Below the pieces are notes generated by a model that was given only the letters and a program-made list of their open reading frames with translations, made no database searches and was not told the DNA's origin. A DNA stretch of 64,000 nt from contig CBHYLN010000006.1 of NCBI GenBank assembly GCA_966128725.1, positions 6,236 through 70,235 of the forward strand. Direction: 5' to 3'. Below, piece by piece: positions 39,488 to 55,805 of the stretch. The stretch's first letter is position 1. Each line of letters starts with the position of its first letter. Origin of the DNA: an uncultured bacterium. Lineage in GTDB: Bacteria > Bacteroidota > Ignavibacteria > OLB7. A program made the translations under genes and the position numbers.

Positions 39488-40003
39488 ATGACAACAACAC
39501 AACGATATGTTCTGCTGACAGCATTGGCGGCCGCACTGGCTGGCTGCACAAATCCGTTTGCGCCCAAGCTGGAACCCGAGCTGTTGCCGAACACCACGGT
39601 GTTGGGCGATCAGCGCACGGTAAGCGGCGTGTTCCAGAACGTTCAGTACGCCTACACGTTCCGCGACACGCTGATCTACGCAAACCTGCTCCACCCCGAG
39701 TTCCAATTCCGCTACTACAATCCCGATCGCGCATCCGATGTCACGTTCAACCGCGACGAAGAGGTGCGCACCACGTACAACCTGTTTCGCGGCGCCGATC
39801 AGATCGACCTGCAATGGAACGACATCCTCTCGCAGGAGGGGGATTCGCTGCTGGTTGATGTAACGCGCGCATACACGCTGAAGGTTGCGCTGCAGGCCAA
39901 CGATGTGTTCCGCATCGAAGGGCGTGCTACGCTCAGGCTTGTACGAACCACTCCCAACGACATATGGCTTATTCGAAGCTGGCGCGACGACTCAAGTTTC
40001 TGA
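39488..40003 (+). CDS. hypothetical lipoprotein (paralog of 38771..39406)
   Basis: Lipobox ALAGCT. 171 aa. Shares C-terminal W[LY]I[RS]SWRD motif and overall pattern with the upstream lipoprotein. Confidence 0.5.
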   Translation: MTTTQRYVLLTALAAALAGCTNPFAPKLEPELLPNTTVLGDQRTVSGVFQNVQYAYTFRDTLIYANLLHPEFQFRYYNPDRASDVTFNRDEEVRTTYNLFRGADQIDLQWNDILSQEGDSLLVDVTRAYTLKVALQANDVFRIEGRATLRLVRTTPNDIWLIRSWRDDSSF

Positions 40004-42045
40004 TCGCTTCGTACCGGCGCCACGGTATCGCTCATGTCGTGGAGGTGTTCCGCCAGGAACGTATTCGCCGTGCGTACGCGGCCGCGCCAATCCCCCCGCC
40101 CACAGCCAACGAACTGCTTGCCACGTACGGCATCAACGACGGTGATGCGCGCACGTTCATCGAACGCTTTGCCGGCGGGGCCGCAGCCAGCCTGCCGCCC
40201 GTTGCCGCGATCAAGGCCGGCTCGTTCGGCCGCGATCTTATTGCCCTTGGCATCGGCGACCAGTTGCGCTCCGACGCATCGACGATTGCGTCCGGGCGTT
40301 TCGAGGGGCTTGGGATCTGCATCAACGAACCGGGCGGCGAGTTCGATTGGAGCCGTGACTACGGCAGCGCGCACCGGTGGCCGCCCGTACCGTTCAACCG
40401 GATCGCCTATGGCGCCAACGACGGAGCCGATGTAAAGTATCCGTGGGAACTCAGCCGCATGTATTGGATCGGCTGGCTGGGCATGGCGCATCATACCGAA
40501 CCCGGCGGCATGTGGCCCGCGCAGTTCGTGCGCCTGCTGGACCATTGGGCAGCGTGCAACCCGGTGAACGTGGGTGTGAACTGGGCAATGCCGATGGAGG
40601 TTGGCATCCGTGGATTCTGGCTGGTGATGGGATACGCGTTGTTCGGCGATGCCGACTCGATTACGCCGGGATGGTGGGTAAACTACCTCTGCCTTGCCTG
40701 GGCGCACGGCGCGTACCTGGAGCACAACCTGGAGTACTTCTCCAATCTTACCAACCACTACATAGCAAACTGCCTGGGCCTGGTGGCCCTTGGCGCGTTG
40801 TTCGCCGACACCGTCACGGGCCAGCGCTGGCTGCGTAACGGGCGTGACCGGCTGATCGCCGAGCTGGAGCATCAGGTATTGCCCGACGGCACGCACTACG
40901 AGCGCTCGGTAGGATATCATCGGCTTGTGCTGGAGATGTACCTGGCCGCGCAGGCCCTGCTGCAGGGCGCACGCCTGCCGTTCGGCGCGCAGGCGTGCGC
41001 GAGGCTCGAACGCATGGCGGAGTTCCTGCGCGACTATTCACCGAACGCAGTTGGTGCGCCGCCGCCAACCGTACCGCAGTTCGGCGACTCGGACAACGGC
41101 GTACTGCTGCGGCTTTCGATGGATCAGGAGCTGTACAACCATCATGACACGCTGGCGCTGGCAGGGGCGGTTCTGCACCGAAAGGATCTGCTTCGCGATG
41201 CAGGCGGCGACCACGCATGCTCTGTTCTGCTGGGTTATCCGGGTACCGATCAGCCACAGGGGCCGTCCGGCAGCAACGGCGGCACGCCGGGACCGGAGCC
41301 CGCGCTGGGGTCGGTGCTGTATCCCGATGGCGGGTTTGCTGTTCTGCGTGGCGCAGGCTGGCATGTTGTTGCCGACGTCGGCCCGATTGGGCTGCACGGA
41401 AACAACGACACGCTGGCCTTTACGGTTAACGGCGCAACCGGCGCGTTTATCATCGACCCCGGAACCTACTGCTACACACGTTCCCCCCGCCTTCGCAACA
41501 CATTGCGCTCATCACGGGCACACAATGCGCCGGTACTGAACGGCGCCGAAACGGCCGAGTTCGACGGCCTGTGGCGCGTGCGGCACGACGGCACCAACAC
41601 ACGCGTGCTGCGCTGGGAGCACCAGCAACGCCAGGACCAAAACGGCACAGCGGATGAAACGTTGCTTGTTGCCGAACACGCCGCTTATGACAGGCCCCCT
41701 CTGGCGGCGCGTGTGCGGCGCACGTGGCAACTGCGCGGCAACGAGCTGCGTGTGCGCGATGCGGTCATCGGCGTGGGCCGGCATCAGGTGGCGGTCCGGT
41801 TTGCGGTGGCGGCCGACGCGCGTACAGTGCAACAGGCGCCGAACGTTGTTGTCATCATCCGCCCGGGCGGCGAACAACTGACACTGGAGTGCTCGCACGA
41901 GCTGGCCATCGAATCCGGCTGGTACTCGCCGAGCTACGGTGTGGCCGCCGGCAATCAGTGGATAACGCTGAGCGCCGGGATTGCCGCGGTTGCTCCGGAT
42001 GGGACCGATCAAATAGCGTATATTTGGCGCTTATCCTCGCTGTAA
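39964..42045 (+). CDS. heparinase II/III-like (alginate-lyase-type) protein
   Basis: 693 aa. Central (alpha/alpha)6 toroid and C-terminal beta-sandwich signatures (LPDGTHYERSVGYHRLVLEMY, WHVVADVGPIGLHGNNDTLAF, PGTYCYT). 40-nt overlap with the upstream lipoprotein gene. Confidence 0.65.
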   Translation: MAYSKLARRLKFLIASYRRHGIAHVVEVFRQERIRRAYAAAPIPPPTANELLATYGINDGDARTFIERFAGGAAASLPPVAAIKAGSFGRDLIALGIGDQLRSDASTIASGRFEGLGICINEPGGEFDWSRDYGSAHRWPPVPFNRIAYGANDGADVKYPWELSRMYWIGWLGMAHHTEPGGMWPAQFVRLLDHWAACNPVNVGVNWAMPMEVGIRGFWLVMGYALFGDADSITPGWWVNYLCLAWAHGAYLEHNLEYFSNLTNHYIANCLGLVALGALFADTVTGQRWLRNGRDRLIAELEHQVLPDGTHYERSVGYHRLVLEMYLAAQALLQGARLPFGAQACARLERMAEFLRDYSPNAVGAPPPTVPQFGDSDNGVLLRLSMDQELYNHHDTLALAGAVLHRKDLLRDAGGDHACSVLLGYPGTDQPQGPSGSNGGTPGPEPALGSVLYPDGGFAVLRGAGWHVVADVGPIGLHGNNDTLAFTVNGATGAFIIDPGTYCYTRSPRLRNTLRSSRAHNAPVLNGAETAEFDGLWRVRHDGTNTRVLRWEHQQRQDQNGTADETLLVAEHAAYDRPPLAARVRRTWQLRGNELRVRDAVIGVGRHQVAVRFAVAADARTVQQAPNVVVIIRPGGEQLTLECSHELAIESGWYSPSYGVAAGNQWITLSAGIAAVAPDGTDQIAYIWRLSSL

Positions 42046-42053
42046 CTGTACCA

Positions 42054-43427
42054 ATGTCCGAAACGCCCGCAGCCACGCCCCCCGGATCGCGCCGAACCAT
42101 GTCGCCGTTGAAACTCGCGGCATGGGCAGCCGCGGACAAGATCCTGCCGATGCTCTATGGCGTGGCCGTGATCTTCATTCCCCTTCGGTGCCTGAGTGCC
42201 GAGGAGTGGGGAGCGTGGACGAACACACAGATGGTGTTCATGATCATCGCGCTTGTTGGTGACTTCTTCGTGTTGCAGCCGATGGTTAAGATCACCGCCG
42301 AAACCGACGACGACCCACGCCCGGTGATAACGGCGTCGTTCCTGCTGTACGCCGCGTTCACGCTGGTGCTGGGCCTTGGCGTGACGTTCGGGCAGAACTC
42401 GCTTGCGGCCCTCGTGAAGTCGCCGGAGGCCGCGGCCTCATTCGGTCTGATGGGCTGGCTGATTCTAGCGAACATCGTGCGTACCGTGGCAATCCGGGCA
42501 CTTCAGATTTACTACCGCATCATCGCGATTTTTGTTGTCGACGCTGTGTACTTCGTGCCGCTGATCGCCTTGATGGTGGTGGGCCAGCGGACCGACACGT
42601 TCAAGTCGTCGGTGGATTTCGTGAACTACAACCTGATCGCGTTTGGCATCAGTTCGGTTGTGGGCGTGGCGCTGTGCGGGCGCGTGCTGCTGCCGCGGCT
42701 TACCAACGTCGGGCGGTCGGTGCGTCGCCTGCTTGATCTCGGCATTCATCAGGGCGGCACCGGAATGCTTACGGTGCTGCAACAACAAAGCGATCTGGCG
42801 ATTGTCTCCGGCCTGCGCGGCGGCGTTGCAGCCGGCCTGTACAATGCAGCACGCACCTTCTACCGCTTTTTCGATTCGGTGCGCGATGCCGCGCAGCTAC
42901 TGCTTGTGCCGGCTACCTCGCGCGCGTACACACAGGAGCGGATCGAGGATGTGGAGGAAGTCACCGAGCTGGCCACCGCGGCAATCGCCGCATTGATGAT
43001 TCCGCTCTCGATTGTGATGATCGCCCTGGCGCCCTGGATTGTGCCGATTGTGCTGCACAAACCCGATGCGGTTGAGGAGTTCCAGATCCTGATGGCCGGC
43101 GGTTTCGTGATGCCGTTCGTGATTGTACCCTCGGCGGTATTGCTCGGCATCGGCCACACGCGCGATCTGTATCGGTGCACATTCGTGGGCACGGTTGTGC
43201 TGATCGTGGGCGGCTTCGCCCTGACATGGTTCTTTGGCAGCGAGGGCATGGCGGCCGGCGTATTGCTGGGCACATCGGTGACTGCCATCCTGCTCACACG
43301 GAGAATGAATCGCCACGTACCGTTCACGTTCCGGTCGGTGTTGCGGCGCTCACGCAGCTTCGGGCCGCTGGTTCGGCGACGCCTGGCAATGCTGCAATTA
43401 CCCACCAAGCGCAACGGAAACAACTGA
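42054..43427 (+). CDS. polysaccharide biosynthesis protein / Wzx-like flippase (MOP superfamily)
   Basis: 457 aa from the ATG at 42054, immediately after the heparinase stop. ~12-14 TM and N-terminal KILPMLYGVAVIFIPLRCLSAEEWG pattern typical of polysaccharide exporters. Confidence 0.6.
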   Translation: MSETPAATPPGSRRTMSPLKLAAWAAADKILPMLYGVAVIFIPLRCLSAEEWGAWTNTQMVFMIIALVGDFFVLQPMVKITAETDDDPRPVITASFLLYAAFTLVLGLGVTFGQNSLAALVKSPEAAASFGLMGWLILANIVRTVAIRALQIYYRIIAIFVVDAVYFVPLIALMVVGQRTDTFKSSVDFVNYNLIAFGISSVVGVALCGRVLLPRLTNVGRSVRRLLDLGIHQGGTGMLTVLQQQSDLAIVSGLRGGVAAGLYNAARTFYRFFDSVRDAAQLLLVPATSRAYTQERIEDVEEVTELATAAIAALMIPLSIVMIALAPWIVPIVLHKPDAVEEFQILMAGGFVMPFVIVPSAVLLGIGHTRDLYRCTFVGTVVLIVGGFALTWFFGSEGMAAGVLLGTSVTAILLTRRMNRHVPFTFRSVLRRSRSFGPLVRRRLAMLQLPTKRNGNN

Positions 43428-43802: not shown

Positions 43803-44885
43803 TTGGTAGAGACTGTTCCTATGGCAGACCCAATGAAGGAAGCGCGCCAGCGTGCGATCACCAATGCGGTGGATCAGATCGAAAAGCAGTTTGGCAAGGG
43901 GGCGATCATGCGCCTGAGCGACTCGGCCGTGGTGCCGGTCGAGGCCATTTCCACGGGGTCGCTCTCATTGGATGCGGCCATCGGAATCGGCGGCATCCCC
44001 CGCGGTCGTATCACGGAGATCTACGGTCCGGAATCGTCGGGCAAGACCACGGTGTGCCTTCACGTGATCGCCGAGGCGCAGAAGCGTGGCGGCGTGGCGG
44101 CATTCGTTGATGCCGAACACGCGTTGGATATCAACTACGCGGCACGCCTGGGCGTGGACGTCAACAACCTGCTGCTGGCACAGCCCGAGTTCGGCGAGCA
44201 GGCGCTGGAGATCGTGGAGACGCTTGTGCGCTCCGGGGCGATCGACGTGGTTGTGATCGACTCGGTTGCCGCGCTTACGCCGCGCGTGGAAATCGAGGGC
44301 GAGATGGGCGACGCGCAGATGGGATCGCAGGCGCGCCTGATGTCGCAGGCGATGCGGAAGCTGAACGCCGCGATTGGCCGCAGCAACGCCATCGTGCTGT
44401 TCACCAACCAGCTTCGTTCCAAGATCGGTGTGATCTACGGCAACCCCGAGACCACAACCGGCGGCAACGCGCTGAAGTTCTACGCGTCGGTCCGCATCGA
44501 CATTCGCCGCAAGGAAGTGCTGAAGGACGGGCAGGAGATTGTCGGAAACCGCGTTCGCGCGAAGATCGTGAAGAACAAGGTGGCGCCTCCGTTCCGCGAG
44601 GTTGAGTTCGACGTGATGTACAACGAGGGGATCTCGAAGATCGGCGACGTTATCGATATCGCGATCGAGAACAGCCTTGTGCAGAAGAGCGGCTCGTGGT
44701 TCACCTTCGGTGAGGAGCGCGTGCAGGGTCGCGACCAGCTTAAGAAGCTGTTTCAGGACCAGCCCGAAACCTTCGCCTCGTTGGAATCACTGGTGCGCGA
44801 ACGGCTTGGCATCCGCGACCCGCAGCCACTGTCGGACATGCCCAACAGCGGCATCGACAATCAGAAAGGCAAGCCGTCGAAGTAA
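43803..44885 (+). CDS. recA: recombinase RecA
   Basis: Walker [11 protein letters not shown]1/L2 loops, [11 protein letters not shown]. 360 aa. Confidence 0.9.
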
Positions 44886-45470: not shown

Positions 45471-46733
45471 ATGAAGAAGCGCACGCTCTCGACCAACAGC
45501 AGCCGACGTTCGGCTTTGAAAACTCTCGGCATGGCCTCGGCCGCAACGCTTACCGCGCCGTTCCTCACGACGATGTCCGGCTCGGTTGGTTCGGTTGCAA
45601 CGGCCGGTACGTTCATCGGTCGGCGCCGCGATCTCCGTTTGGCTGTGCTTATGCCCGGCACGCAGGGTGTTGGCACTGCTTCGTTTAACAACGGCATCAA
45701 CCTTGCCCTGGAAATGGCGGGCACAACGGCCGTTCGTGCGCGCGTTCACGATATCGGCGGCGGCGTCAGTTGCGCTGTACGCTTCGCGCGCGAGCAGGCG
45801 GCAAACCGCGACGCGGATGTTGCAATCGGACTGATGAGCCCACGTGTGGCACGATGGCTGGATACGGATCTGGAGCAGGCAAGGCTTCCTTTGATCGTTG
45901 CCGGCGCCGGCGAACGGGCGGTCAGCAGCGACGCGGTTTCCCCGGCGTTTGTGTACACAACCTTGCAGCTCACCAGCGCCGCCTACGCCGCTGGTGCATG
46001 GGCCGCCAATAACCTTGGCCGTTCGTGTGCGCTTGCGGCATCGTATTACGAAGCGGGATACGATATCGTGCATGCCTTCGGGGCCGGGTTCCAGGCCGCC
46101 GGTGGCACTGTGATATCCAGCTACATCAGTGGCTCACCGGTTTCAACGGTAACCGCCCACGATGTTGTGCGGGCGATCGCCGAAAGCAAGGCCGACGTTG
46201 TTGGCGCTTTCTACAACGGCGCGGAAGCAGCCGAGTTCTTTGCCCGGTATGCGTCGTACGAGAGCACCGCATACCGGCCCGTTGTTGGCAGTGCGCTGGT
46301 TTCCCCAACACAGACCTCGGGCATTCGCCTGATGAGCGGCACCACGTGGTCGGCCGCGCTCGACAACGTTGCCAACCGCGCGTTCGTTGACGCGTACACC
46401 GCACGGTTCGCGCAGGCGCCCGATTCCTTCGCGCTGCTTGGCTACGAGAGCGCGCAGCGCGCGATCGACGCCTACGATCGCGGCGGCCGCGATGGCGTGG
46501 TTGAGGCGCTTCGCTCCTCGGCATCGAATGCTCAGGTTGCGGTTGGCGCCCGTGGCATGGTTGCCGTGAACAAGGGGACAAACGAGATTTCGGCCCCGGT
46601 GTATCTCCGCCGTTTCAACAGCGACGGAACCGAGGAGATGGTCGCCGAACTTTCCACGGCCGATCAGGCACAGAAGATTGCCGCGCAGCTCCCACAGCGC
46701 AGCGGCTGGATTACTTCCTACCTCACAGTATAG
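45471..46733 (+). CDS. Tat-signal periplasmic-binding-protein-like protein (type I PBP / LivJ-like fold), orphan
   Basis: Twin-arginine motif SRRSALKTLGMASAA. ~390-aa mature domain, Ala/Gly-rich alpha/beta pattern of type I PBPs. No ABC transporter genes adjacent. Family assignment from pattern only. Confidence 0.5.
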   Translation: MKKRTLSTNSSRRSALKTLGMASAATLTAPFLTTMSGSVGSVATAGTFIGRRRDLRLAVLMPGTQGVGTASFNNGINLALEMAGTTAVRARVHDIGGGVSCAVRFAREQAANRDADVAIGLMSPRVARWLDTDLEQARLPLIVAGAGERAVSSDAVSPAFVYTTLQLTSAAYAAGAWAANNLGRSCALAASYYEAGYDIVHAFGAGFQAAGGTVISSYISGSPVSTVTAHDVVRAIAESKADVVGAFYNGAEAAEFFARYASYESTAYRPVVGSALVSPTQTSGIRLMSGTTWSAALDNVANRAFVDAYTARFAQAPDSFALLGYESAQRAIDAYDRGGRDGVVEALRSSASNAQVAVGARGMVAVNKGTNEISAPVYLRRFNSDGTEEMVAELSTADQAQKIAAQLPQRSGWITSYLTV

Positions 46734-46868
46734 GAGTCGGTTACCGCCGAGAGATGGATTCCCTTGAGGCCAGATCTCACCAACATCGGCGAACCGCGTT
46801 TCGATGGGACGGATGCACGGCATTGGGCCGTGCGAGTTCACACAACCATTTAGTTAGGAGAAGTTCAC

Positions 46869-47396
46869 ATGGCAGAACCGTTTATCGGCCAGATCATCCA
46901 GGCTGGGTTCAACTTCGCACCGCGTGGCTACGCTACGTGTGATGGACAGCTCTTGTCCATCGCGCAGAATACGGCGCTCTTCTCGCTGCTCGGCACCACA
47001 TTCGGCGGCGACGGACGTGTCACGTTCGGGCTGCCCGATCTCCGTGGCCGTGTAGCGATTCATCAGGGCCAGGGTCCGGGCCTTACCCCCCGTGTGATGG
47101 GCGAGGCAGCAGGCTCTGAAACGGTAACGCTGATCAACAGCGAAATGCCGATGCACAACCACCTGATGGCGGTCACCAATGTGTCGGGTGCGGTCGCGAC
47201 GCCAAACGGCAACTTCATCGCCGCGAGCAGCGATGCTAACGCCGTTGTCACGTTCCGTCCCACGTCCGACGGGTCCACGCTGAATCCGCAGTCAATCGGC
47301 CTGGCCGGTGGCAATCAGCCGCATAACAATATGCAGCCGTACCTCGTGATCAACTTCTGCATCGCGCTGCAGGGCATCTTCCCGTCGCGCAATTGA
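46869..47396 (+). CDS. phage tail-collar domain protein (MdpB-like), copy 1
   Basis: 175 aa. MAEPFIGQII..FNFAPRGYATCDGQLLSIAQNTALFSLLGTTFGGDG...LPDLRGR is the hallmark start of collar-only proteins. AGGAG Shine-Dalgarno 8 nt upstream. Confidence 0.8.
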   Translation: MAEPFIGQIIQAGFNFAPRGYATCDGQLLSIAQNTALFSLLGTTFGGDGRVTFGLPDLRGRVAIHQGQGPGLTPRVMGEAAGSETVTLINSEMPMHNHLMAVTNVSGAVATPNGNFIAASSDANAVVTFRPTSDGSTLNPQSIGLAGGNQPHNNMQPYLVINFCIALQGIFPSRN

Positions 47397-47450
47397 TCAT
47401 CGTTCGGTAACAAAAACTCAACGACTGATTAACCTGTAGGAGAACGATCA

Positions 47451-47978
47451 ATGGCAGAACCATTTATCGGTCAGATCATAATGACCGGGTTCAACTTCGC
47501 ACCGCGAGGCTACGCAACATGTGATGGGCAGCTCTTGTCCATTGCGCAGAACACGGCCCTTTTCTCGCTGCTGGGCACCACGTTCGGCGGCGACGGACAG
47601 GTCACGTTCGGATTGCCCGACCTGCGTGGTCGTGTCGGGATTCATCAGGGGCAGGGCCCCGGCCTGACCAATCGCACAATGGGTGAGGCTTCGGGCACTG
47701 AAACGGTAACGCTGATCAGCAGCCAGATGCCGATGCACAACCACTTGATGGCAACCACCAACGTGTCGGGTGCGCTCGGGACACCGAACGGCAACTTCAT
47801 CGCCGCAAGCAGTGCGCCAGGCACCGCGGTGATGTTCCGCCCTACGTCGGACGGATCCACGTTGAATCCGCAGTCCATCGGTTTGGCTGGCGGCAATCAA
47901 CCGCACAACAACATGCAGCCGTATCTGGTGATCAGCTTCAGCATCGCGTTGGAAGGAATCTTCCCGTCGCGCAACTAG
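47451..47978 (+). CDS. phage tail-collar domain protein (MdpB-like), copy 2
   Basis: 175 aa, ~77% identical to copy 1. Own AGGAG RBS. Confidence 0.8.
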   Translation: MAEPFIGQIIMTGFNFAPRGYATCDGQLLSIAQNTALFSLLGTTFGGDGQVTFGLPDLRGRVGIHQGQGPGLTNRTMGEASGTETVTLISSQMPMHNHLMATTNVSGALGTPNGNFIAASSAPGTAVMFRPTSDGSTLNPQSIGLAGGNQPHNNMQPYLVISFSIALEGIFPSRN

Positions 47979-48010
47979 CCGACATACAAACGCGTTTGTT
48001 GCGGAATATT

Positions 48011-48055
48011 GTGGCCGGCATACATCCAAGCGATCGTGCCGGCCACAGTTGTATT
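48011..48055 (+). terminator. putative terminator hairpin after collar gene 2
   Basis: GTGGCCGGCA-(16 nt)-TGCCGGCCAC inverted repeat followed by AGTTGTATTC. Confidence 0.4.
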
Positions 48056-48153
48056 CAACACCGGCACCATGGCCCGCTCGCTCCCATGATGATATGGCGC
48101 CGGTTCCACATAAAGCGCCCTTCATACGGCACATCCACCAAGAATACCCGTTC

Positions 48154-48660
48154 ATGCTTGCCAACTTCGGCCCGTATACGTTTCGCAGAATCGAGGAACG
48201 CGACAGCGAGTTTGTGCGCTCTCTGTTCCACATCACGCTGCGCTCGCAGATGCCATTTGAGCAGACCGGATTAAGCGATGACCAGATCGATGCCCTGCTG
48301 GATCACCAACTTGAGGCGCAGACACTGCACTACAGCTCCAACTACCCACAGGCCGAGATTTCAATCGTAGAGCACCCCGACGGCCCGGTGGCACGGTTGA
48401 TCATCATCGAGTTCGACAACGAGGTTCGGTTGGGTGATTTGATGGTGCTGCCCGAGCATCAGAACAATGGCCTGTGCTCATACATCATGGATCAGTACGT
48501 GGCGCTTGGCCTGGCTACCGGGCGCATGATCCGTCTGCACGTTGAGAAGGTGAACCGTGCGATCAACCTGTACAAGCGAAAGCACTTTGTCATCATCGAG
48601 GACCTGTCGTCGCACTGGCTTATGGAATACCAGCCCGAGAAAGCCTCACAAGCAGCATGA
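48154..48660 (+). CDS. GNAT family N-acetyltransferase
   Basis: 168 aa from the ATG at 48154. Acetyl-CoA motif A region (LMVLPEHQNNGLCSYIM) and beta-strand pattern of the GNAT fold. Confidence 0.6.
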   Translation: MLANFGPYTFRRIEERDSEFVRSLFHITLRSQMPFEQTGLSDDQIDALLDHQLEAQTLHYSSNYPQAEISIVEHPDGPVARLIIIEFDNEVRLGDLMVLPEHQNNGLCSYIMDQYVALGLATGRMIRLHVEKVNRAINLYKRKHFVIIEDLSSHWLMEYQPEKASQAA

Positions 48661-48944
48661 TTGTGGTGATGCAGGCAATTGTCGCGGAACACATGAAACC
48701 CGTTGGCAATTACCACGCCCCACGGGAAACCTGCGTGTTCGTGTGTATCCCGTGGAGCATGTTCAGCAAGGTTTTCGCAAAGGCATAATCCAGCTCCTGC
48801 TCACATCCGCCCCGTTGGTTCAGAGGTCGGCGATCCTCGCGAGCCAACCGGCGCACCCGCCCCTTCTCCCCATTCCACTCCGCTGCATCACGTGACCATG
48901 ACATCGGATGCAGCATTGCTACCCGGTTATAGGCCGCACGCGCG

Positions 48945-49319
48945 TCAGTTAAACACGGATTCGTACTGCCATCCGGTCTCACCCGGACCAACCGGTACCA
49001 CTCCCATCTGGAACTGCCCCACCTCCGGGTGATCGAACTGGTACAATCCCTGGCGTGTCAACGCCATTTCATCTCCACGAAACAAGAGAACAAATGGATC
49101 GGTACGCACATACCCTGCCTTGCCCAGGGCCCTGCCATCCATGGGCTTAAGCTGAAGGGGCTCGGCACTGATCAGCTCCAGATTCACGGTGACCCCATCC
49201 GGGCGAGTGACGACGAAGTTGGTGCCAACGTGCCGCACGAAGGTCTCGTATGTAAAGGGACTGGGGGTTGGCACAAATGCATTATCCACGGGGCATTCCT
49301 CTTGGCAAAGTTGGTCCAC
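48945..49319 (-). CDS. hypothetical small protein (124 aa), no recognised family
   Basis: ORF with noticeably lower GC than its surroundings, downstream of and co-oriented with the giant fibre-like gene. No motif recognised. Confidence 0.4.
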   Translation of the reverse strand: MDQLCQEECPVDNAFVPTPSPFTYETFVRHVGTNFVVTRPDGVTVNLELISAEPLQLKPMDGRALGKAGYVRTDPFVLLFRGDEMALTRQGLYQFDHPEVGQFQMGVVPVGPGETGWQYESVFN

Positions 49320-49380
49320 GAAATCCGGGGCAAACCCAAACTATCATGTTCACGATGATGATTGGATCCCCATTTACAAC

Positions 49381-49410
49381 AAGGGACATCCACATACGTG
49401 GATGTCCCTT
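49381..49410. promoter_or_regulatory. perfect 13-bp-stem palindrome (AAGGGACATCCAC-ATAC-GTGGATGTCCCTT)
   Basis: Lies between the giant gene stop (49455) and the small ORF start (49319). Either a U-tract-less terminator/attenuator or a dimeric-regulator operator. Confidence 0.45.
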
Positions 49411-49454
49411 GCTCGATGATCGTTCAACGATAGCCGTTAGCTGCAAGCAGCAGC

Positions 49455-52400
49455 TTACCAGCCATACCAGTTGCCGGCGCCATCGGAATACAGGCGGCGG
49501 TTACCGCCGGCATTGCCGAATGCCATGTTATTCTGGCCGTCGATCTTGTCGGTTCCATTCGGCTGAATGGTCAGAACCGGCAGAAGCGCATTGTTGTACT
49601 TCTCGATCTTGATAATCAGGATCTCACCGGCAGTTGTTGCCGGCTGCAGATTGATCGTGAAGTTCGTACCGGCCGACATATCAACACCGATGATGTCGTC
49701 GGCACCAACAACGTTGTACGACGTATTACCGGCATTTGCGATAAGCCCGGTGCGAGCAAACAGAATGGCGCCACCGCCAATCGAACCCCACTTCAACGTG
49801 GCGTTGTTGCCCGCAACCGCCTGTACCTGCAGCACCTGATCAACCCCCGTTGGGGCGGCATTCGGGAGCGTGTAGGTAAGATCGGCGGCCTGCGCCTGTG
49901 CCTTGATCGCGGTATAGTTCACACCCGAGCCACTGGGCTCAAGCAAACGCAACTCGCGGGCAGTGTTGTCGTTGTTGCCGATTGCGATGTGCGCGTTCGT
50001 TGTCGTGAACGTGCCCGCGGCGATATCCGCGCCCTGAATCGTACCGTCGGCGATCTTGGCACTGGTAACCGCACCATCGGCGATGTGTGCCGTGTTCACC
50101 GCCGAGGTAAGCAGCTTCAGGCCCGAAACGGCACTGTCGGCCAGCTTCGAGGTCGTCACCGTACCGTTGGCAACCTTCGAGGTCGTGATCGCGTTGGCCA
50201 CGATGTCAGCGTTCTGGATGCTGTTGACAAGCGACAGCTTCGAGTACACAATCGCCGCCGTCGGCGAAACATCGGCGTCAACGATCGTGCCGTCCAGGAT
50301 CTTCGCGCTCGTCACGGCATTGGCCGCGATTACCGGGTTCGGATACGTGCCGGTAAGATCACCGCCCGCCGCGCCGCTTGGCGGCAACGAGGTTGGCGCA
50401 CCGCTCAGCTTCGAGTAGCTGATGCCGTTGGCAACCTTGGCGTCGGTAACCGCACCATCGGCGATGTGCGCCGTGTTCACCGCCGAGGTAAGCAGCTTCA
50501 GGCCCGAAACGGCACTGTCGGCCAGCTTCGAGGTCGTCACCGTACCGTTGGCAACCTTCGAGGTCGTGATCGCGTTGGCCACGATGTCAGCGTTCTGGAT
50601 GCTGTTGACAAGCGACAGCTTCGAGTACGCAATCGCCGCCGTCGGCGAAACATCGGCATCAACGATCGTGCCGTCCAGGATCTTCGCGCTCGTCACGGCG
50701 TTGGCCGCGATCGTCGGGTTCGGATACGTGCCGGTGAGATCACCACCCGCGGCGCCACCCGGCGACGGGCTGCCCCACACGATGTTGGTGCCGTTGTACG
50801 TGATCGCCTGGCCCGAGGCCGCACCCGTTGGGCTCAACTTCGGAAGCGTGATCGATCCGTCGATATGATCGGCCGTAACCAGGCTGTTCGTCAGGTTCAG
50901 CTTCGAGTATGCGATCGCTGCTCCGGCCGCAACATCGGCGTTGACGATCGTGCCGTCCAGGATCTTCGCGCTCGTCACGGCGTTGGCCGCGATCGTCGGG
51001 TTCGGATACGTGCCGGTGAGATCACCACCCGCGGCGCCACCCGGCGACGGGCTGCCCCACACGATGTTGGTGCCGTTGTACGTGATCGCCTGGCCCGAGG
51101 CCGCACCCGTTGGGCTCAACTTCGGAAGCGTGATCGATCCGTCGATATGATCGGCCGTAACCAGGCTGTTCGTCAGGTTCAGCTTCGAGTATGCGATCGC
51201 TGCTCCGGCCGCAACATCGGCGTTGACGATCGTGCCGTCCAGGATCTTCGCGCTGTTGACCGAGCCGTCGACAAGGTCACCAGTGACGATGCTGTTGGCA
51301 AGCGCCAGCTTCGAGTACGCAATCGCCGCCGTCGGCGAGACGTCGGCATTGACGATCGTGCCGTCGAGAATCTTCGCGGTCGTGACCGCACCGTCGGCAA
51401 GGTCCGCCGTGACAACGGTGCCATCGGCGATCTTCGCGGTAGTGACCGAGCCATCGGCAAGGTCCGCCGTGACGATCGTGCCATCGACGATGTCGCCGCT
51501 GACAATGCTGTTGGCAAGCGCCAACTTCGAGTACGCAATCGCGGCCGCGGCGGCAACGTCGGCGTTCACAATCGTGCCGTCGAGAATCTTCGCGCTGTTG
51601 ACCGCGCCGTCGGCAAGGTCCGCCGTGGCGATCGTGCCATCGACGATGTCGCCGCTGACGATGCTGTTGGCGAGCGCCAGCTTCGAGTACGCAATCGCGG
51701 CCGCGGCGGCAACGTCAGCGTTCACAATTGTGCCGTCGAGGATCTTCGCGCTGTTTACCGCATCGTTGGCGATATCCTGCGTCTTGACCTCGCCGTCCTT
51801 GATCTTCACGGACGTGACGGAACTGTCGGCAAGGATGGACTCGGTCACCGAACCGATGGCGAGCTTGTTGGTCGTCACCGCGCCGTTGGCCAGATCGGCC
51901 GTGGCGATGGTGCCGTCGAGAATCTTGTCCGACGTAACGGCATCCGGAGCAAGCTTCGGATTGGTCACCGCGCCATTGGCCAGCTTCACCGTGTTGATCG
52001 CCGAGTCGGCAATGTATTCACGCTTGATGCCCCGTCCGGCGATCGAGAGCGACGTGGTCGGTCCGTTCGGATCGGAAACGATGATGGCATCGTCATTGCT
52101 CTGGATGGTGTTGATCGTGCCAACACTCAACGAGGTCACCGTGATCTTGCCCGTGGCATTGTTCTTGGTGATCTGGATGTTGGTACCGCCCAGAATTTCG
52201 AGATCGCCCTTCATTCCGTTCAGGCTGCTCACAACCAGACCGGGCAGCGAAGTCCAGGCAACGCCGGCGCCGGTGGAAACAAGGATCTGGCCCGCGGTGC
52301 TGCCCAGGGAGCTGAGCTTGGCCGGGGTCACCGAGCCGTCGGCAATGCTGGAAGTGCCGATCGCGCCTGGCGCAACCGCGCGCGCGGAATCGGCCATGAT

Positions 52401-52778
52401 CGCCCGCATGCTATACGGCGAACTGGTGAGCTGGACACGCGGCGTCAACTCGGTGCCGCCATCGATACCAAACCCAAGCCAATAGGTACGGTCGAACTGA
52501 ACGCTCGACGGGATACCACCCGGGGTGGATGCACCGATGATCAGGTTGTAGATGCCCTTGTTTACCGACACAGTCTGTGTCTCGGAGAACAGAGCCGTGC
52601 CACCGGTCTCTACATCGTAGAGCTTTACGGCAATGGCGTGATTGCCCTGCACGGGGTTACCACCTGCATTGGTGATATATCCCTGATAGGATATCGTGCG
52701 TGGAGCCTGGGCCCAGGCTGTTGTTGCCATCAGGAGTCCGGCAACCGCAACGCCGAAATACCTACGTGGATGCTTCAT
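49455..52778 (-). CDS. large secreted tail-fibre-like repeat protein (putative surface fibre/adhesin)
   Basis: 1107 aa from the ATG at 52776-52778 (MKHPRRYFGVAVAGLLMATTAWAQA signal peptide). N-terminal ISYQGYITNAGGNPVQG...LYDVETGGTALFSETQTVSVNKGIYNLIIG domain, then ~800 aa of DGTI[VA].AD.A.GAVT.AKI fibre-type repeats. ~180-aa C-terminal non-repeat domain ending GNWYGW. Confidence 0.7.
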   Translation of the reverse strand: MKHPRRYFGVAVAGLLMATTAWAQAPRTISYQGYITNAGGNPVQGNHAIAVKLYDVETGGTALFSETQTVSVNKGIYNLIIGASTPGGIPSSVQFDRTYWLGFGIDGGTELTPRVQLTSSPYSMRAIMADSARAVAPGAIGTSSIADGSVTPAKLSSLGSTAGQILVSTGAGVAWTSLPGLVVSSLNGMKGDLEILGGTNIQITKNNATGKITVTSLSVGTINTIQSNDDAIIVSDPNGPTTSLSIAGRGIKREYIADSAINTVKLANGAVTNPKLAPDAVTSDKILDGTIATADLANGAVTTNKLAIGSVTESILADSSVTSVKIKDGEVKTQDIANDAVNSAKILDGTIVNADVAAAAAIAYSKLALANSIVSGDIVDGTIATADLADGAVNSAKILDGTIVNADVAAAAAIAYSKLALANSIVSGDIVDGTIVTADLADGSVTTAKIADGTVVTADLADGAVTTAKILDGTIVNADVSPTAAIAYSKLALANSIVTGDLVDGSVNSAKILDGTIVNADVAAGAAIAYSKLNLTNSLVTADHIDGSITLPKLSPTGAASGQAITYNGTNIVWGSPSPGGAAGGDLTGTYPNPTIAANAVTSAKILDGTIVNADVAAGAAIAYSKLNLTNSLVTADHIDGSITLPKLSPTGAASGQAITYNGTNIVWGSPSPGGAAGGDLTGTYPNPTIAANAVTSAKILDGTIVDADVSPTAAIAYSKLSLVNSIQNADIVANAITTSKVANGTVTTSKLADSAVSGLKLLTSAVNTAHIADGAVTDAKVANGISYSKLSGAPTSLPPSGAAGGDLTGTYPNPVIAANAVTSAKILDGTIVDADVSPTAAIVYSKLSLVNSIQNADIVANAITTSKVANGTVTTSKLADSAVSGLKLLTSAVNTAHIADGAVTSAKIADGTIQGADIAAGTFTTTNAHIAIGNNDNTARELRLLEPSGSGVNYTAIKAQAQAADLTYTLPNAAPTGVDQVLQVQAVAGNNATLKWGSIGGGAILFARTGLIANAGNTSYNVVGADDIIGVDMSAGTNFTINLQPATTAGEILIIKIEKYNNALLPVLTIQPNGTDKIDGQNNMAFGNAGGNRRLYSDGAGNWYGW
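50685..51248. repeat. intragenic perfect tandem duplication, 2 x 282 bp (94 aa x 2)
   Basis: Track residues 517-610 and 611-704 of the giant protein are identical (AKILDGTIVNADVAAGAAIAYSKLNLTNSLVTADHIDGSITLPKL...TIAANAVTS). A 2 x 153-bp repeat lies further 5' and a near-perfect 2 x 381-bp repeat at ~50022-50684. Confidence 0.8.
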
Positions 52779-52804
52779 GGAGATCCCTCTCGTCATTGTG
52801 AGTA

Positions 52805-52832
52805 GATTCTACAGTTCAAACGTTGTCAGCAA
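52805..52832 (-). promoter_or_regulatory. candidate sigma-70-like promoter of the giant gene
   Basis: On the minus strand, TTGCTG-(15 nt)-TAGAAT ~45 nt upstream of the start, with AGAGGGA RBS. The 290-bp upstream gap is AT-richer. Confidence 0.35.
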
Positions 52833-53085
52833 ATCTTGTGGGGAGGGGGGATGAACCAGCTCGCCTCCATTGGGGAAAAGGAGCGGACCTCCGGCCAAAG
52901 GCCACAGAGTTTACGAAGGGTTCATGCCAAGCCGGCCATGTTGGGCGCGGTTCAACGAAGCTCAAACATACGGAATTCATTTTAAACAAAAACCAAATGC
53001 CAAGCCCGGAAGGTTGAGGCCTGCATACCCGCCAACGTAGACACAGGCGCGCGCGCAGCGGCATGCCGACAGCAGAAACCATATG

Positions 53086-55485
53086 TTACTTGGCCGGTCC
53101 GTCGTCGAACACGATTCCGTTGCCCTTTACAACCGGCGTCCCGGGTACAACGCGTGGCTCGGTAACGTAATCGGCGCCGCTGCCGCGATCGATCAACAGC
53201 CCGATCGAACCGGAGCCTCGTACACGGTTTGCGTTGCCACCGCCCTGGCTGAGCGCCGAATCGCTCAGCTTGGCGTAATACATATCGTCGCCCGCCGCAT
53301 CCAGAAGCCACGCGAACGACACGGTCAACGCCGAACCCTGGCTACTGTTGGAGCCCCGATACGTGTCGTTGCCCGATGCGTCCTCAAGGCAGCCGGCCGA
53401 CCAGTCGTGCGCGTTCCCCTGCTCCAGCCCCGCGTAGGCATCATACATATCGTCGCCGGCATCGTCGAGCAACGCCCCGAACGACAGGTGAATCCCACTT
53501 CCCTGCGAATACTGACCGGCCGTGTACCGATCGGCACCGGCGCCATCGTGCAATATGCCGAGCGCATACCAGTAGCTGCCGCCCTGGCTGAAGTAGTCCG
53601 AAGCGTACACATCGTCGCCGGTACGATCGGTAAGCACGCCAATGCCTCCGTCGGTCCCGATACCGGTGCCCCACGGACGCATGCCGAAACCGAAGCCCTG
53701 CGACATCGCCAGATACGCCCGGTTCGGATACCGCGAGTCGGGAATCTTCCACCCTGCCCTGTAGGCATCATTCCCCTCGAACTCCAGAATGGCGCCAAAG
53801 CCCCGGGCATAACCAAATCCCTGCGAATACACCTGTGAGGTATACTGGTCGTCGCCGGCGCGATCACACAACAGACCGATCCCCAGGAACGCCGCCCCCT
53901 GCGAACACCAGCGGGCATCGTAGACATCGTTGCCGGCATGATCTACCAATACACCAACGCCGAGAAGCCCGGCGCCCTGCGAGAAGTGACCGGCACGATA
54001 GGTGTCGTCGCCGGCAAGATCGAACAGAACATCCACGGCCCCCAGGCCCGCGGCCTGCCCTGTTGCGGTGGTGTTGTAGAAGTCGTTGCCGGCAACATCG
54101 CCAACATAACGGAAGCCGCCCATGCCAACCGGCGGAAGCTGGTACAGGTCATCGCCGCCAACATCGATGATCACGGCGAAGTCACCGGTATAACGATTAT
54201 GCCCCGGGCCGCCGATCACGATTCTCCCAAAGGGTGTAGATGTCACCTGCAACACCGTGCCTTCCACGCCGGGGACCGCAACGGGCACCGACGATCGGAT
54301 TGGCGGAAGTGAGCGCACGAACGCAACCAACCACGACGAATCCGCAAGCCCGGCCAGCAGTGCCCCGGCCTGGAACAGCGAGATGCGGTCCAGGCCATCG
54401 GCGGCACCCAGTAACGCAGCCATCCGCTTCTCCTCGGCAATACGAAGCTCGCGGTGGCGCACGGGGTCCTTCACGGTATCCAGCCCGGCCTCCCAGTTGC
54501 TGTCGATATCAAGCAAACCGCTCAGGCCCCGCACCAACGAGTCAAGCGGGTACCGGATCGCACGAAACGCCTCGTGCAGTTCGTTGGCCACAGCCGTGCA
54601 ACGGTTGCGCAGCGTGGACATCGAGGCGGGCAGAATCGGTTCGGGCGCCACTGTTGGCAGCGAGACATCAAGCCCGGAAGCGGCGGTGGCCACGGCGCCG
54701 GCAATACCGTTGCGTTCTACGGAGCCCCAGATATCGGTGCAGACCTGGCGCGCAAACGCGCCGATGCGTGTGGGGTTATGATGCAGATAGGTGACGGCGT
54801 TCAACCGCCATGGGCTGCGCCGCTGCGTAAACGGTACGGTGCAGAAATCCTGATCGGCGACTACACACATCTGCTTCTGAATTGTCCGGGCACGCTCTGT
54901 CAGATTGGTTTGCTCCAGCGTCCGGGCAAGCCAGCTTTGCTCCACAACCGGCCCCAGCCCGGCCGGAGCCGGCGGCACCGGCATTGGCGCTCGTTCGGGC
55001 GCACGCACCGGCACCATCAGATCGCGGGCAACACCGGCGCGAACAATCCGGAATCGAGCGGTGTCCCCGGGCGACATCCCGCGCACGGTCATGTTCAGAT
55101 AGTCATCGTACTGATAGACGGTATCACCGATTGGGTGGCCGTTGAGCGAAACAATCAGGTCCCCGATCAACATGCCGCCATCGTCGGCAAGCCAGTGTGG
55201 CATCACGTGCCACACACGCACGGGCCGCTCCCCTGCCTGCACGCCCGGAATCAGCGCCATGCTGTCGTCGGGGATCGCGTTGACATACACACCAAGGCGC
55301 GGGCGCAGCGGATCGGGCTGCCCGCCCCACACGAACGGTGGTAGATCGAACATCGACAGGCTGACGCGCATAAGGCTGTCGGCCCGTTGACGATTGTACT
55401 GCGCTGCAAGCGGGCGCGCAGCGGCAAGATGAAGCAGCACAAACGCGAGAACGGCAACGAGGAAGCAACGAGCTGTGATTCGCAT
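53086..55485 (-). CDS. secreted PDZ-domain protein with C-terminal Gly/Asp/Tyr-rich ~23-aa repeats (predicted beta-helix/beta-roll), unknown family
   Basis: 799 aa from the ATG at 55483-55485 (signal peptide MRITARCFLVAVLAFVLLHLAAARPLAAQ). PDZ-like segment (GMLIGDLIVSLNGHPIGD), helical middle, then ~12 units of pattern h..D.AG[ND]D.Y.......SQG.G..G. Confidence 0.55.
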   Translation of the reverse strand: MRITARCFLVAVLAFVLLHLAAARPLAAQYNRQRADSLMRVSLSMFDLPPFVWGGQPDPLRPRLGVYVNAIPDDSMALIPGVQAGERPVRVWHVMPHWLADDGGMLIGDLIVSLNGHPIGDTVYQYDDYLNMTVRGMSPGDTARFRIVRAGVARDLMVPVRAPERAPMPVPPAPAGLGPVVEQSWLARTLEQTNLTERARTIQKQMCVVADQDFCTVPFTQRRSPWRLNAVTYLHHNPTRIGAFARQVCTDIWGSVERNGIAGAVATAASGLDVSLPTVAPEPILPASMSTLRNRCTAVANELHEAFRAIRYPLDSLVRGLSGLLDIDSNWEAGLDTVKDPVRHRELRIAEEKRMAALLGAADGLDRISLFQAGALLAGLADSSWLVAFVRSLPPIRSSVPVAVPGVEGTVLQVTSTPFGRIVIGGPGHNRYTGDFAVIIDVGGDDLYQLPPVGMGGFRYVGDVAGNDFYNTTATGQAAGLGAVDVLFDLAGDDTYRAGHFSQGAGLLGVGVLVDHAGNDVYDARWCSQGAAFLGIGLLCDRAGDDQYTSQVYSQGFGYARGFGAILEFEGNDAYRAGWKIPDSRYPNRAYLAMSQGFGFGMRPWGTGIGTDGGIGVLTDRTGDDVYASDYFSQGGSYWYALGILHDGAGADRYTAGQYSQGSGIHLSFGALLDDAGDDMYDAYAGLEQGNAHDWSAGCLEDASGNDTYRGSNSSQGSALTVSFAWLLDAAGDDMYYAKLSDSALSQGGGNANRVRGSGSIGLLIDRGSGADYVTEPRVVPGTPVVKGNGIVFDDGPAK

Positions 55486-55805
55486 GGCGCTGTTGAACGA
55501 GAGAGAGAGAGGATTTCCGTGAACGGGAAGAATCCGCGAAGCTACAATACTTACCGCCGATGCCCTAACAGGCTGCCAGCGACTATTGCTGATCAGTCCG
55601 GGGGGACCTGAGCGGCGGTTCAACAGACGACAGGAGTGTTGCGAGGGATGGCTATGATGAACGTGGAGAGGAGGTGATAACGTGGATCAGAATCGGATGC
55701 ACGGCACACCCGACGCTGGATCACATCCGCGCCCGGATCGCGCTTGCCAGTCCTTACCGGCCGAGCGCGTATCCAGGCTGCCGACGGTGCGCGGCTGACC
55801 GCGCA

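Follow-up and report, generated by a model that had tools for sequence, protein, structure and literature searches.

How can one gene come to hold repeats hundreds of nucleotides (nt) long, one pair of them without a single mismatch, and are such repeats a sign that the length of its product changes? This question is raised by a minus-strand gene for a giant fibre-like protein of 1107 amino acids (aa), located in a 64,000-nt stretch of contig CBHYLN010000006.1 (assembly GCA_966128725.1), which is referred to here as the window. Our reading, to which we give a probability of roughly three in four, is that the product is a secreted, phage-tail-fibre-like surface fibre of a Kapabacteria-like host from the Fibrobacteres-Chlorobi-Bacteroidetes (FCB) group, and that the cassettes of its repetitive rod are gained and lost by misaligned recombination. 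Coordinates of all features are collected in Table 1.

Three tandem repeats lie in the rod. A first-pass annotation, made from the letters of this DNA, had described them as perfect duplications of 2x153, 2x282 and ~2x381 bp; all three are real, but only the 282-nt pair is perfect. Shifted by 282 nt against itself, the gene shows 100% identity over 311 nt (50944-51254 against 50662-50972), giving a perfectly periodic array of 593 nt with 2.1 copies, and Tandem Repeats Finder (TRF) reports the period of 282 across 50616-51254. The identity that had been noticed between residues 517-610 and 611-704 was confirmed at 94 of 94 positions. The array has the form a-b-a-b-a, where a is the 29-mer AGCGCGAAGATCCTGGACGGCACGATCGT, encoding SAKILDGTIV; the 29-mers at its three boundaries do not differ, and beyond the outer two copies the flanks diverge at once. 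The unit described as 51 aa (153 nt) is indeed doubled, but it measures 52 aa (156 nt) and is imperfect, with 153 of 163 nt identical and eight of the ten differences synonymous. The 127-aa unit, said to be nearly identical between residues 705-831 and 832-~925, is duplicated with 302 of 312 nt identical (a separate repeat search, family D2, gives 96%), but in that register only 79 of 94 residues agree and the second copy is partial (~104 of 127 aa). The 29-mer itself is found in the gene as four perfect copies and three copies with three mismatches, all in frame, where chance predicts none, and a broader 52-nt repeat family has 12 copies. Within the window, repeats of at least 100 nt occur only in the fibre gene and the neighboring Collar paralogues, and inverted repeats of at least 100 nt are absent.

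Each rod cassette starts and ends with a SAKILDGTIV-N/D-ADV motif, encoded by near-identical DNA stretches of 29-52 nt that are scattered in frame along the gene. If two of these stretches were to pair out of register, a whole cassette would be added or removed and the frame kept. The route may be a RecA-dependent unequal crossover between sister chromosomes or a misalignment during replication, which would look alike in the sequence. The perfect 282-nt array would then have arisen recently, in one event between two 29-nt motifs that lay 282 nt apart: a single misaligned exchange is expected to leave a-b-a-b-a, with identity reaching the outer 29-mers and going no further. With so many in-frame copies of the motif, the rod is full of sites at which cassettes can be gained or lost. 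The 156-nt and 381-nt repeats could be older products of the same process, or partial homogenisation may have followed. In the course of evolution, the rod would change in length and in the order of its cassettes, with both ends fixed.

Comparison with relatives supports such turnover. When the syntenic orthologues P0002 (1233 aa) and P0004 (1099 aa) were aligned with the fibre, the N-terminal ~270 aa and C-terminal ~190 aa were colinear and the rods differed by whole in-frame cassettes, rather than showing the identical repeat structure in all relatives that the first-pass annotation had named as evidence against variability. The syntenic fibre at locus L007 is shorter still (~1015 aa) than the 1107 aa of the window, with the same end domains and a rod made mostly of another cassette type. 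Between P0002 and P0004, identity is 95.5% over 1099 aligned residues, and the difference is a single 134-aa block, which corresponds to the 402-nt offset of a tandem self-repeat in L001. In L005, which is not syntenic, the tip is 89% identical and four tandem 156-nt units are present against two in the window. The proposed length variation by recombination is thus supported on an evolutionary scale by fixed ends, cassette-sized insertions and deletions, the single block that separates an otherwise 95.5% identical pair, and the four units against two in L005. Cassette copies also group by genome. For the core of the 127-aa cassette (unit X), nucleotide identity is 99, 93 and 92% within genomes against 79-88% between genomes, and at third codon positions the values are 97, 84 and 83% against 56-68%. 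The two 94-aa cassettes of the window are closest to each other and 83-85% identical to those of L001 and L002. Taken as a whole, these comparisons show recurrent duplication, loss or conversion of cassettes in each lineage.

No strain-level relative was found, the closest having ~83% nucleotide identity. A metagenome scan with the N-terminal 270 aa recovered no relative and one with the tip recovered three, while a word-indexed homology search gave one match for the N-domain alone and 18 for the tip. P0041 was considered as a paralogue in the same genome that exchanges cassettes with the fibre gene, and was ruled out, its locus having 46% GC and only ~72% nucleotide identity. The relative closest by tip identity (92%), L003, has a second fibre-like N-terminal region (1157-2107) ~300 nt past the end of its first fibre gene; this region is 66% identical to nt 67-1014 of the window gene, which suggests that the organism may carry tandem fibre genes. 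The label Alphaproteobacteria attached to L003 looks like a binning error.

The view of the product as a surface-fibre-like protein is supported by a Sec signal peptide, an N-terminal match to MAT fibres, rod matches to PHROG families and a tip resembling phage gp10 and tailspikes. The signal peptide contains no Cys, so the fibre protein is not a lipoprotein, and the leaders of the orthologues are equivalent. MAT fibres are defined by a signal peptide followed by a conserved, beta-rich N-domain of ~130 aa, a trimeric rod and swappable tips (PMC10769870). The NCBIfam model Bdello_MAT_N (NF053851) matches aa 15-86 at 37.3 bits (E 2.3e-9), against a curated cut-off of 60 bits, and it is the only model that matches the N-domains of relatives, 21 out of 22 of them, with a best E of 2e-11. 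Homology of this domain to the MAT N-domain is likely on these matches. In the AlphaFold2 (AF2) model, residues 31-110 mostly score 89-97 per 10-residue block in the predicted local distance difference test (pLDDT), a confident beta-sandwich. A fold search of the domain against the PDB gave no match at E<0.01, which agrees with the statement that the MAT N-domain has no structural homologue there (PMC10769870). The domain is presumed to be the cell-proximal anchor that holds the fibre at the cell surface. Its profile collects 98,177 representatives of 50%-identity clusters at E<=1e-3 and 4,156 at E<=1e-30; the domain appears very widespread in metagenomes, with counts that are probably inflated as the C-terminal end of the profile enters the rod repeats. 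Over the N-terminal part as far as the shaft (aa 1-268), BLASTP identity is 63-64%.

The rod has a base periodicity of 10 aa, with autocorrelation peaks at 10, 20, 42 and 52 aa. It shares its three GGDLTGTYPNP cores with Pfam DUF5907 proteins (PF19264); nearly all of the 120 best relatives are annotated with this family, and the precomputed annotation of P0001, a public database protein of 1107 aa identical to the fibre, lists PF19264.5. The fibre differs in that its match over three stretches reaches 26.5 bits against a cut-off of 27, and the family name denotes a repeat, not a function; a literature search on DUF5907 found no papers. The rod also matches the PHROG tail-fibre families phrog_892 (5e-52) and phrog_28766 (2e-46). 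By analogy with MAT and phage fibres, it would be trimeric, for which the 10-aa periodicity and the PHROG matches offer indirect support. The neck module that follows is found internally in other fibres. For the tip, Foldseek against the PDB returned the N-terminal region of CBA120 TSP4 (E 1e-5), a KP1 baseplate chain (root-mean-square deviation 2.7 A over 104 columns) and a T4 baseplate chain, and 164 predicted viral models match at E<=1e-3, some of them annotated as tail fibres or collagen-like proteins. In other organisms this tip is joined to collagen-repeat stalks (P0128, P0129, P0135) and to other stalks, and is thus an exchangeable module. A relationship between the tip and the neighboring Collar proteins was ruled out for lack of any sequence similarity between them. 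By analogy with MAT and phage proteins, the tip may also bind a ligand and the fibre would be displayed at the surface.

MATs have already been listed from FCB-group bacteria (PMC10769870). The fibre is of the same broad kind as the MAT fibres of Bdellovibrio, and its formal membership is likely. A Pfam scan of the fibre found no Peptidase_S74, no Por_Secre_tail sorting domain of the type IX secretion system (T9SS) and no YadA-type or autotransporter anchor; with no Peptidase_S74 match, it would join the non-S74 MAT subgroup. Like Bd2133 and Bd1334 of Bdellovibrio bacteriovorus (non-S74; PMC10769870), it has a signal peptide followed directly by a beta-rich N-domain, a length of ~1000 aa, a beta-repeat rod related to phage tail fibres, and an independent C-terminal beta-sandwich tip that is exchanged between stalks. 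It differs in an N-domain score that stays below the curated threshold, in its Kapabacteria-like host, which has no known predatory habit, in its gp10/tailspike-like tip, which falls outside the six solved MAT tips, and in being the one such gene in the window as compared to 21 in the Bdellovibrio genome. Recent duplication of cassettes within a gene is also not a subject of the MAT study (PMC10769870).

Several observations weigh against this interpretation of the locus. The MAT N-domain match lies below the NCBIfam curated cut-off (37 versus 60 bits), a PDB sequence search with the fibre gave no match, and the fibre has no evident means of crossing the outer membrane, with neither a T9SS sorting domain nor an autotransporter barrel (a weak Por_Secre_tail match is seen in a neighboring gene in L005). 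The claim that variation is ongoing depends on one perfect duplication in one metagenome-assembled contig, with relatives at the species level. The exact protein (P0001) is known from a single contig, which leaves the duplication with no independent check, and gene conversion, instead of repeated new duplication, could explain why copies cluster by genome.

Two alternatives concern the repeats themselves. One is an assembly problem, in which the 282-nt duplication was falsely expanded, or an array of more than two copies was collapsed, and the stated copy number is wrong. A stretch of 311 perfectly identical nt exceeds the usual length of short reads and k-mers, the DNA seems to come from a metagenome assembly, and the relatives are all metagenome-assembled genomes (MAGs). 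The earlier warning about assembly hazards was reasonable. In contigs L003, L004 and L008 the sequence runs out within the rod; among database proteins, P0008 and P0015 have their first residues in rod sequence and P0012 carries the label partial, and these three proteins are probably cut by contig ends. On the flip side, an a-b-a-b-a array with divergent flanks is the trace of a real unequal exchange, and the diverged duplications of the same cassettes in relatives (91-96% identity) cannot be assembly artefacts. When graph assemblers fail at tandem repeats, they usually merge the copies or break the contig and do not create extra ones, which counts against false expansion, and a collapse would alter the count but not the conclusion. 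We consider a wrong copy number unlikely.

The other alternative is that the duplication is old, the 94-aa cassettes predating the split from the L001 lineage and having been made identical by intragenic gene conversion. L001 too has two copies of the 94-aa cassette at the homologous place (offset 378 nt, 94.6% identity), and in three genomes the copies resemble each other more than their counterparts elsewhere, a classic sign of concerted evolution. This history is improbable given that L002, at 95.5% identity to L001, has the cassette only once, and that the spacing of cassettes differs, 282 nt in the window against 378 nt in L001. Moreover, on either side perfect identity reaches the outer 29-nt motif and goes no further, as expected for a duplication junction, whereas for a conversion tract this would be a coincidence.

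Another alternative concerns the nature of the fibre: that the gene encodes a tail fibre of a prophage or phage remnant is a reading that we regard as very unlikely. The resemblance to phage fibres and tailspike adaptors is real: the rod strongly matches PHROG tail-fibre families, the fold of the tip is common in phage fibres and baseplates (T4 gp10, CBA120 TSP4, the baseplate of Klebsiella phage KP1), and two phage-tail-Collar-domain genes lie 1.5 kb away. In contrast to phage fibres, the fibre gene is part of the chromosome and shows synteny across free-living relatives, its product has an N-terminal Sec signal peptide, and the nearest GenBank phage proteins are ~30% identical and covered over the repeats only. 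The flanks are housekeeping genes, with a cytochrome oxidase cluster upstream and a periplasmic binding protein and recA downstream, and the neighborhood is kept in six genomes; thus, the fibre gene is cellular and not part of a prophage. The flanking open reading frames (ORFs) checked include no other genes for phage structure or packaging and none for an integrase.

Variation by a dedicated system is known from Mtd, the fibre tip protein of a Bordetella phage, which is diversified by a diversity-generating retroelement. Mtd is an adhesion protein that binds host pertactin (PMC10769870). That the repeats studied here are targets of such a retroelement or of a site-specific recombinase, and not of general recombination, has in its favor that they are in frame and cassette-sized, and is highly improbable. 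No reverse transcriptase, template repeat or recombinase was found among the neighboring ORFs scanned, the window has no inverted repeats of at least 100 nt, and the differences between repeat copies are mostly synonymous instead of adenine-focused changes in the tip.

Gain and loss of rod cassettes by general recombination has parallels outside the MAT fibres. Surface proteins with variable intragenic tandem repeats include the alpha C protein of group B Streptococcus and SasG/Aap of staphylococci. Intragenic repeats have also been described in Legionella (PMC2639597). The fibre shares with these proteins long in-frame, identical or nearly identical repeats, whose copy number shifts by recombination or slippage and alters the length of a surface structure; it differs in that their folds and anchors are other ones and that their variation is between strains, while that of the fibre is between species-level relatives. 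Trimeric autotransporter adhesins such as YadA and Hsf likewise have modular, repetitive trimeric stalks with a head and a variable number of repeats. The fibre has no C-terminal membrane-anchor barrel and no Pfam match to them, and it is oriented the other way round, its anchor-like domain being N-terminal.

Cassette gain and loss in the fibre is well supported, yet it is ordinary behavior for such a protein. Current understanding is not overturned, since surface fibres and adhesins are well known to vary in length through their repeats (e.g., PMC2639597). What is notable in this gene is the tidy, very recent duplication together with a conserved neighborhood, which may be worth testing. The locus would provide a clean, datable case of length change in a phage-derived surface fibre, in which one exchange between 29-nt motifs added a 94-aa cassette. 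In Bd2133, 370 residues span 142 A (PMC10769870); by analogy, the cassette would add roughly 3-4 nm to the fibre. The finding would also extend MAT-like fibres to Kapabacteria. Genes of this class break or distort short-read assemblies, and thus their copy numbers in MAGs are not to be trusted without long reads.

Table 1. Positions in the window of the fibre gene, its domains and repeats, and neighboring genes
Feature	Position	Strand	Description and basis
Fibre gene	49455..52778	minus	1107 aa + stop; ORF list and translation, identical public entry P0001
Sec-type signal peptide	52710..52778	minus	MKHPRRYFGVAVAGLLMATTAWA followed by QAP, from translation; modelled helix at residues 4-20
N-terminal beta-sandwich, MAT fibre N-domain-like	52404..52709	minus	NCBIfam match and AF2 model
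N-proximal shaft	51969..52403	minus	aa ~126-270; conserved and colinear among orthologues (MAFFT with P0002, P0004)
Repetitive rod	50007..51968	minus	aa ~271-924; three GGDLTGTYPNP (DUF5907) cores, seven AAIAYSKL motifs
156-nt (52-aa) tandem pair	51443..51761	minus	94-95% identical; TRF period 156, 2.1 copies
Perfect 282-nt (94-aa) tandem array	50662..51254	minus	a-b-a-b-a, 29+253+29+253+29 nt
381-nt (127-aa) unit	50064..50756	minus	~1.8 copies, 97% identity; first copy overlaps the end of the 282-nt array
29-nt boundary motif, fourth perfect copy	50281..50309	minus	other copies at 50662-50690, 50944-50972, 51226-51254
Neck module	49755..50006	minus	NNDNTARELRLLEPSGSGVNYTA.KAQAQA..TYTLP; BLASTP to P0003, P0041, P0034, P0104
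C-terminal tip, beta-sandwich of ~95-100 aa	49458..49754	minus	ILFARTG...NWYGW; AF2 pLDDT 91-97
DUF6916 gene	48945..49319	minus	directly downstream of the fibre gene; Pfam PF21880, E 1.9e-20
GNAT acetyltransferase gene	48049..48660	plus	Pfam matches and synteny; conserved neighbor
Two tandem 175-aa phage-tail-Collar-domain (MdpB-like) paralogues	46869-47396, 47451-47978	plus	Pfam Collar, E 1e-26 and 1e-27
845-aa protein	53086..55623	minus	directly upstream of the fibre gene; weak Pfam PDZ_6 and PDZ_2 matches

The fibre is encoded by the single long minus-strand ORF in the ORF list at 49455-52796. An upstream in-frame ATG at 52796 would lengthen the protein by 6 aa; the start is likely the Met at 52778, which matches P0001 and the orthologues. 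On the opposite strand, an antisense ORF of 938 aa at 49989-52805 and shorter ones at 50056, 50422 and 51223 mirror the gene. The repeated antisense ORFs pointed out in the first-pass annotation do reflect the repeats, but they were ruled out as genes by codon-position GC: GC content at third codon positions (GC3) is 0.777 in the fibre ORF, typical for genes of the window, versus 0.555 in the antisense ORF, which marks these ORFs as shadows of the fibre gene. A scan for promoters and terminators gave results only at chance level.

The fibre gene lies in a conserved block (45471-55623) of the PDZ-like gene, the fibre gene, the DUF6916 gene, the GNAT gene and one to three Collar genes, the latter two on the opposite strand, and the periplasmic binding protein gene. 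This order recurs fully or partly at L001, L002, L004, L007 and L008, which together with the window make six genomes; the syntenic genomes are Kapabacteria, 'Bacteroidetes' or unnamed metagenome assemblies. The DUF6916 gene occupies the same position in all five of these loci. The PDZ-like gene is seen in L001 and L002, upstream of the fibre gene as an 804-aa counterpart, and the periplasmic binding protein gene in L008; a PDB sequence search with the PDZ-like protein gave no match. The two Collar proteins of the window are 87% identical to each other and have no signal peptide, and the number of copies is three in L001 and L002, at least two in L004 and one in L008.

It is conceivable, but quite doubtful, that the PDZ-like, MAT-like fibre, DUF6916, GNAT and Collar genes form one cell-cell recognition unit in Kapabacteria. 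If so, the block could capture prey or partner cells as the MAT fibres of Bdellovibrio do, the fibre's reach would be tuned as cassettes come and go, and this uncultured Kapabacteria group would have an unrecognised contact-dependent lifestyle.

Further along the window, recA is located at 43803-44885 on the plus strand, ~4.6 kb from the fibre gene, which is probably a coincidence. Upstream of recA, heparinase II/III-like and polysaccharide-export (Polysacc_synt/MurJ-like) genes at 39964-43427, also on the plus strand, give a hint of surface-glycan functions nearby.

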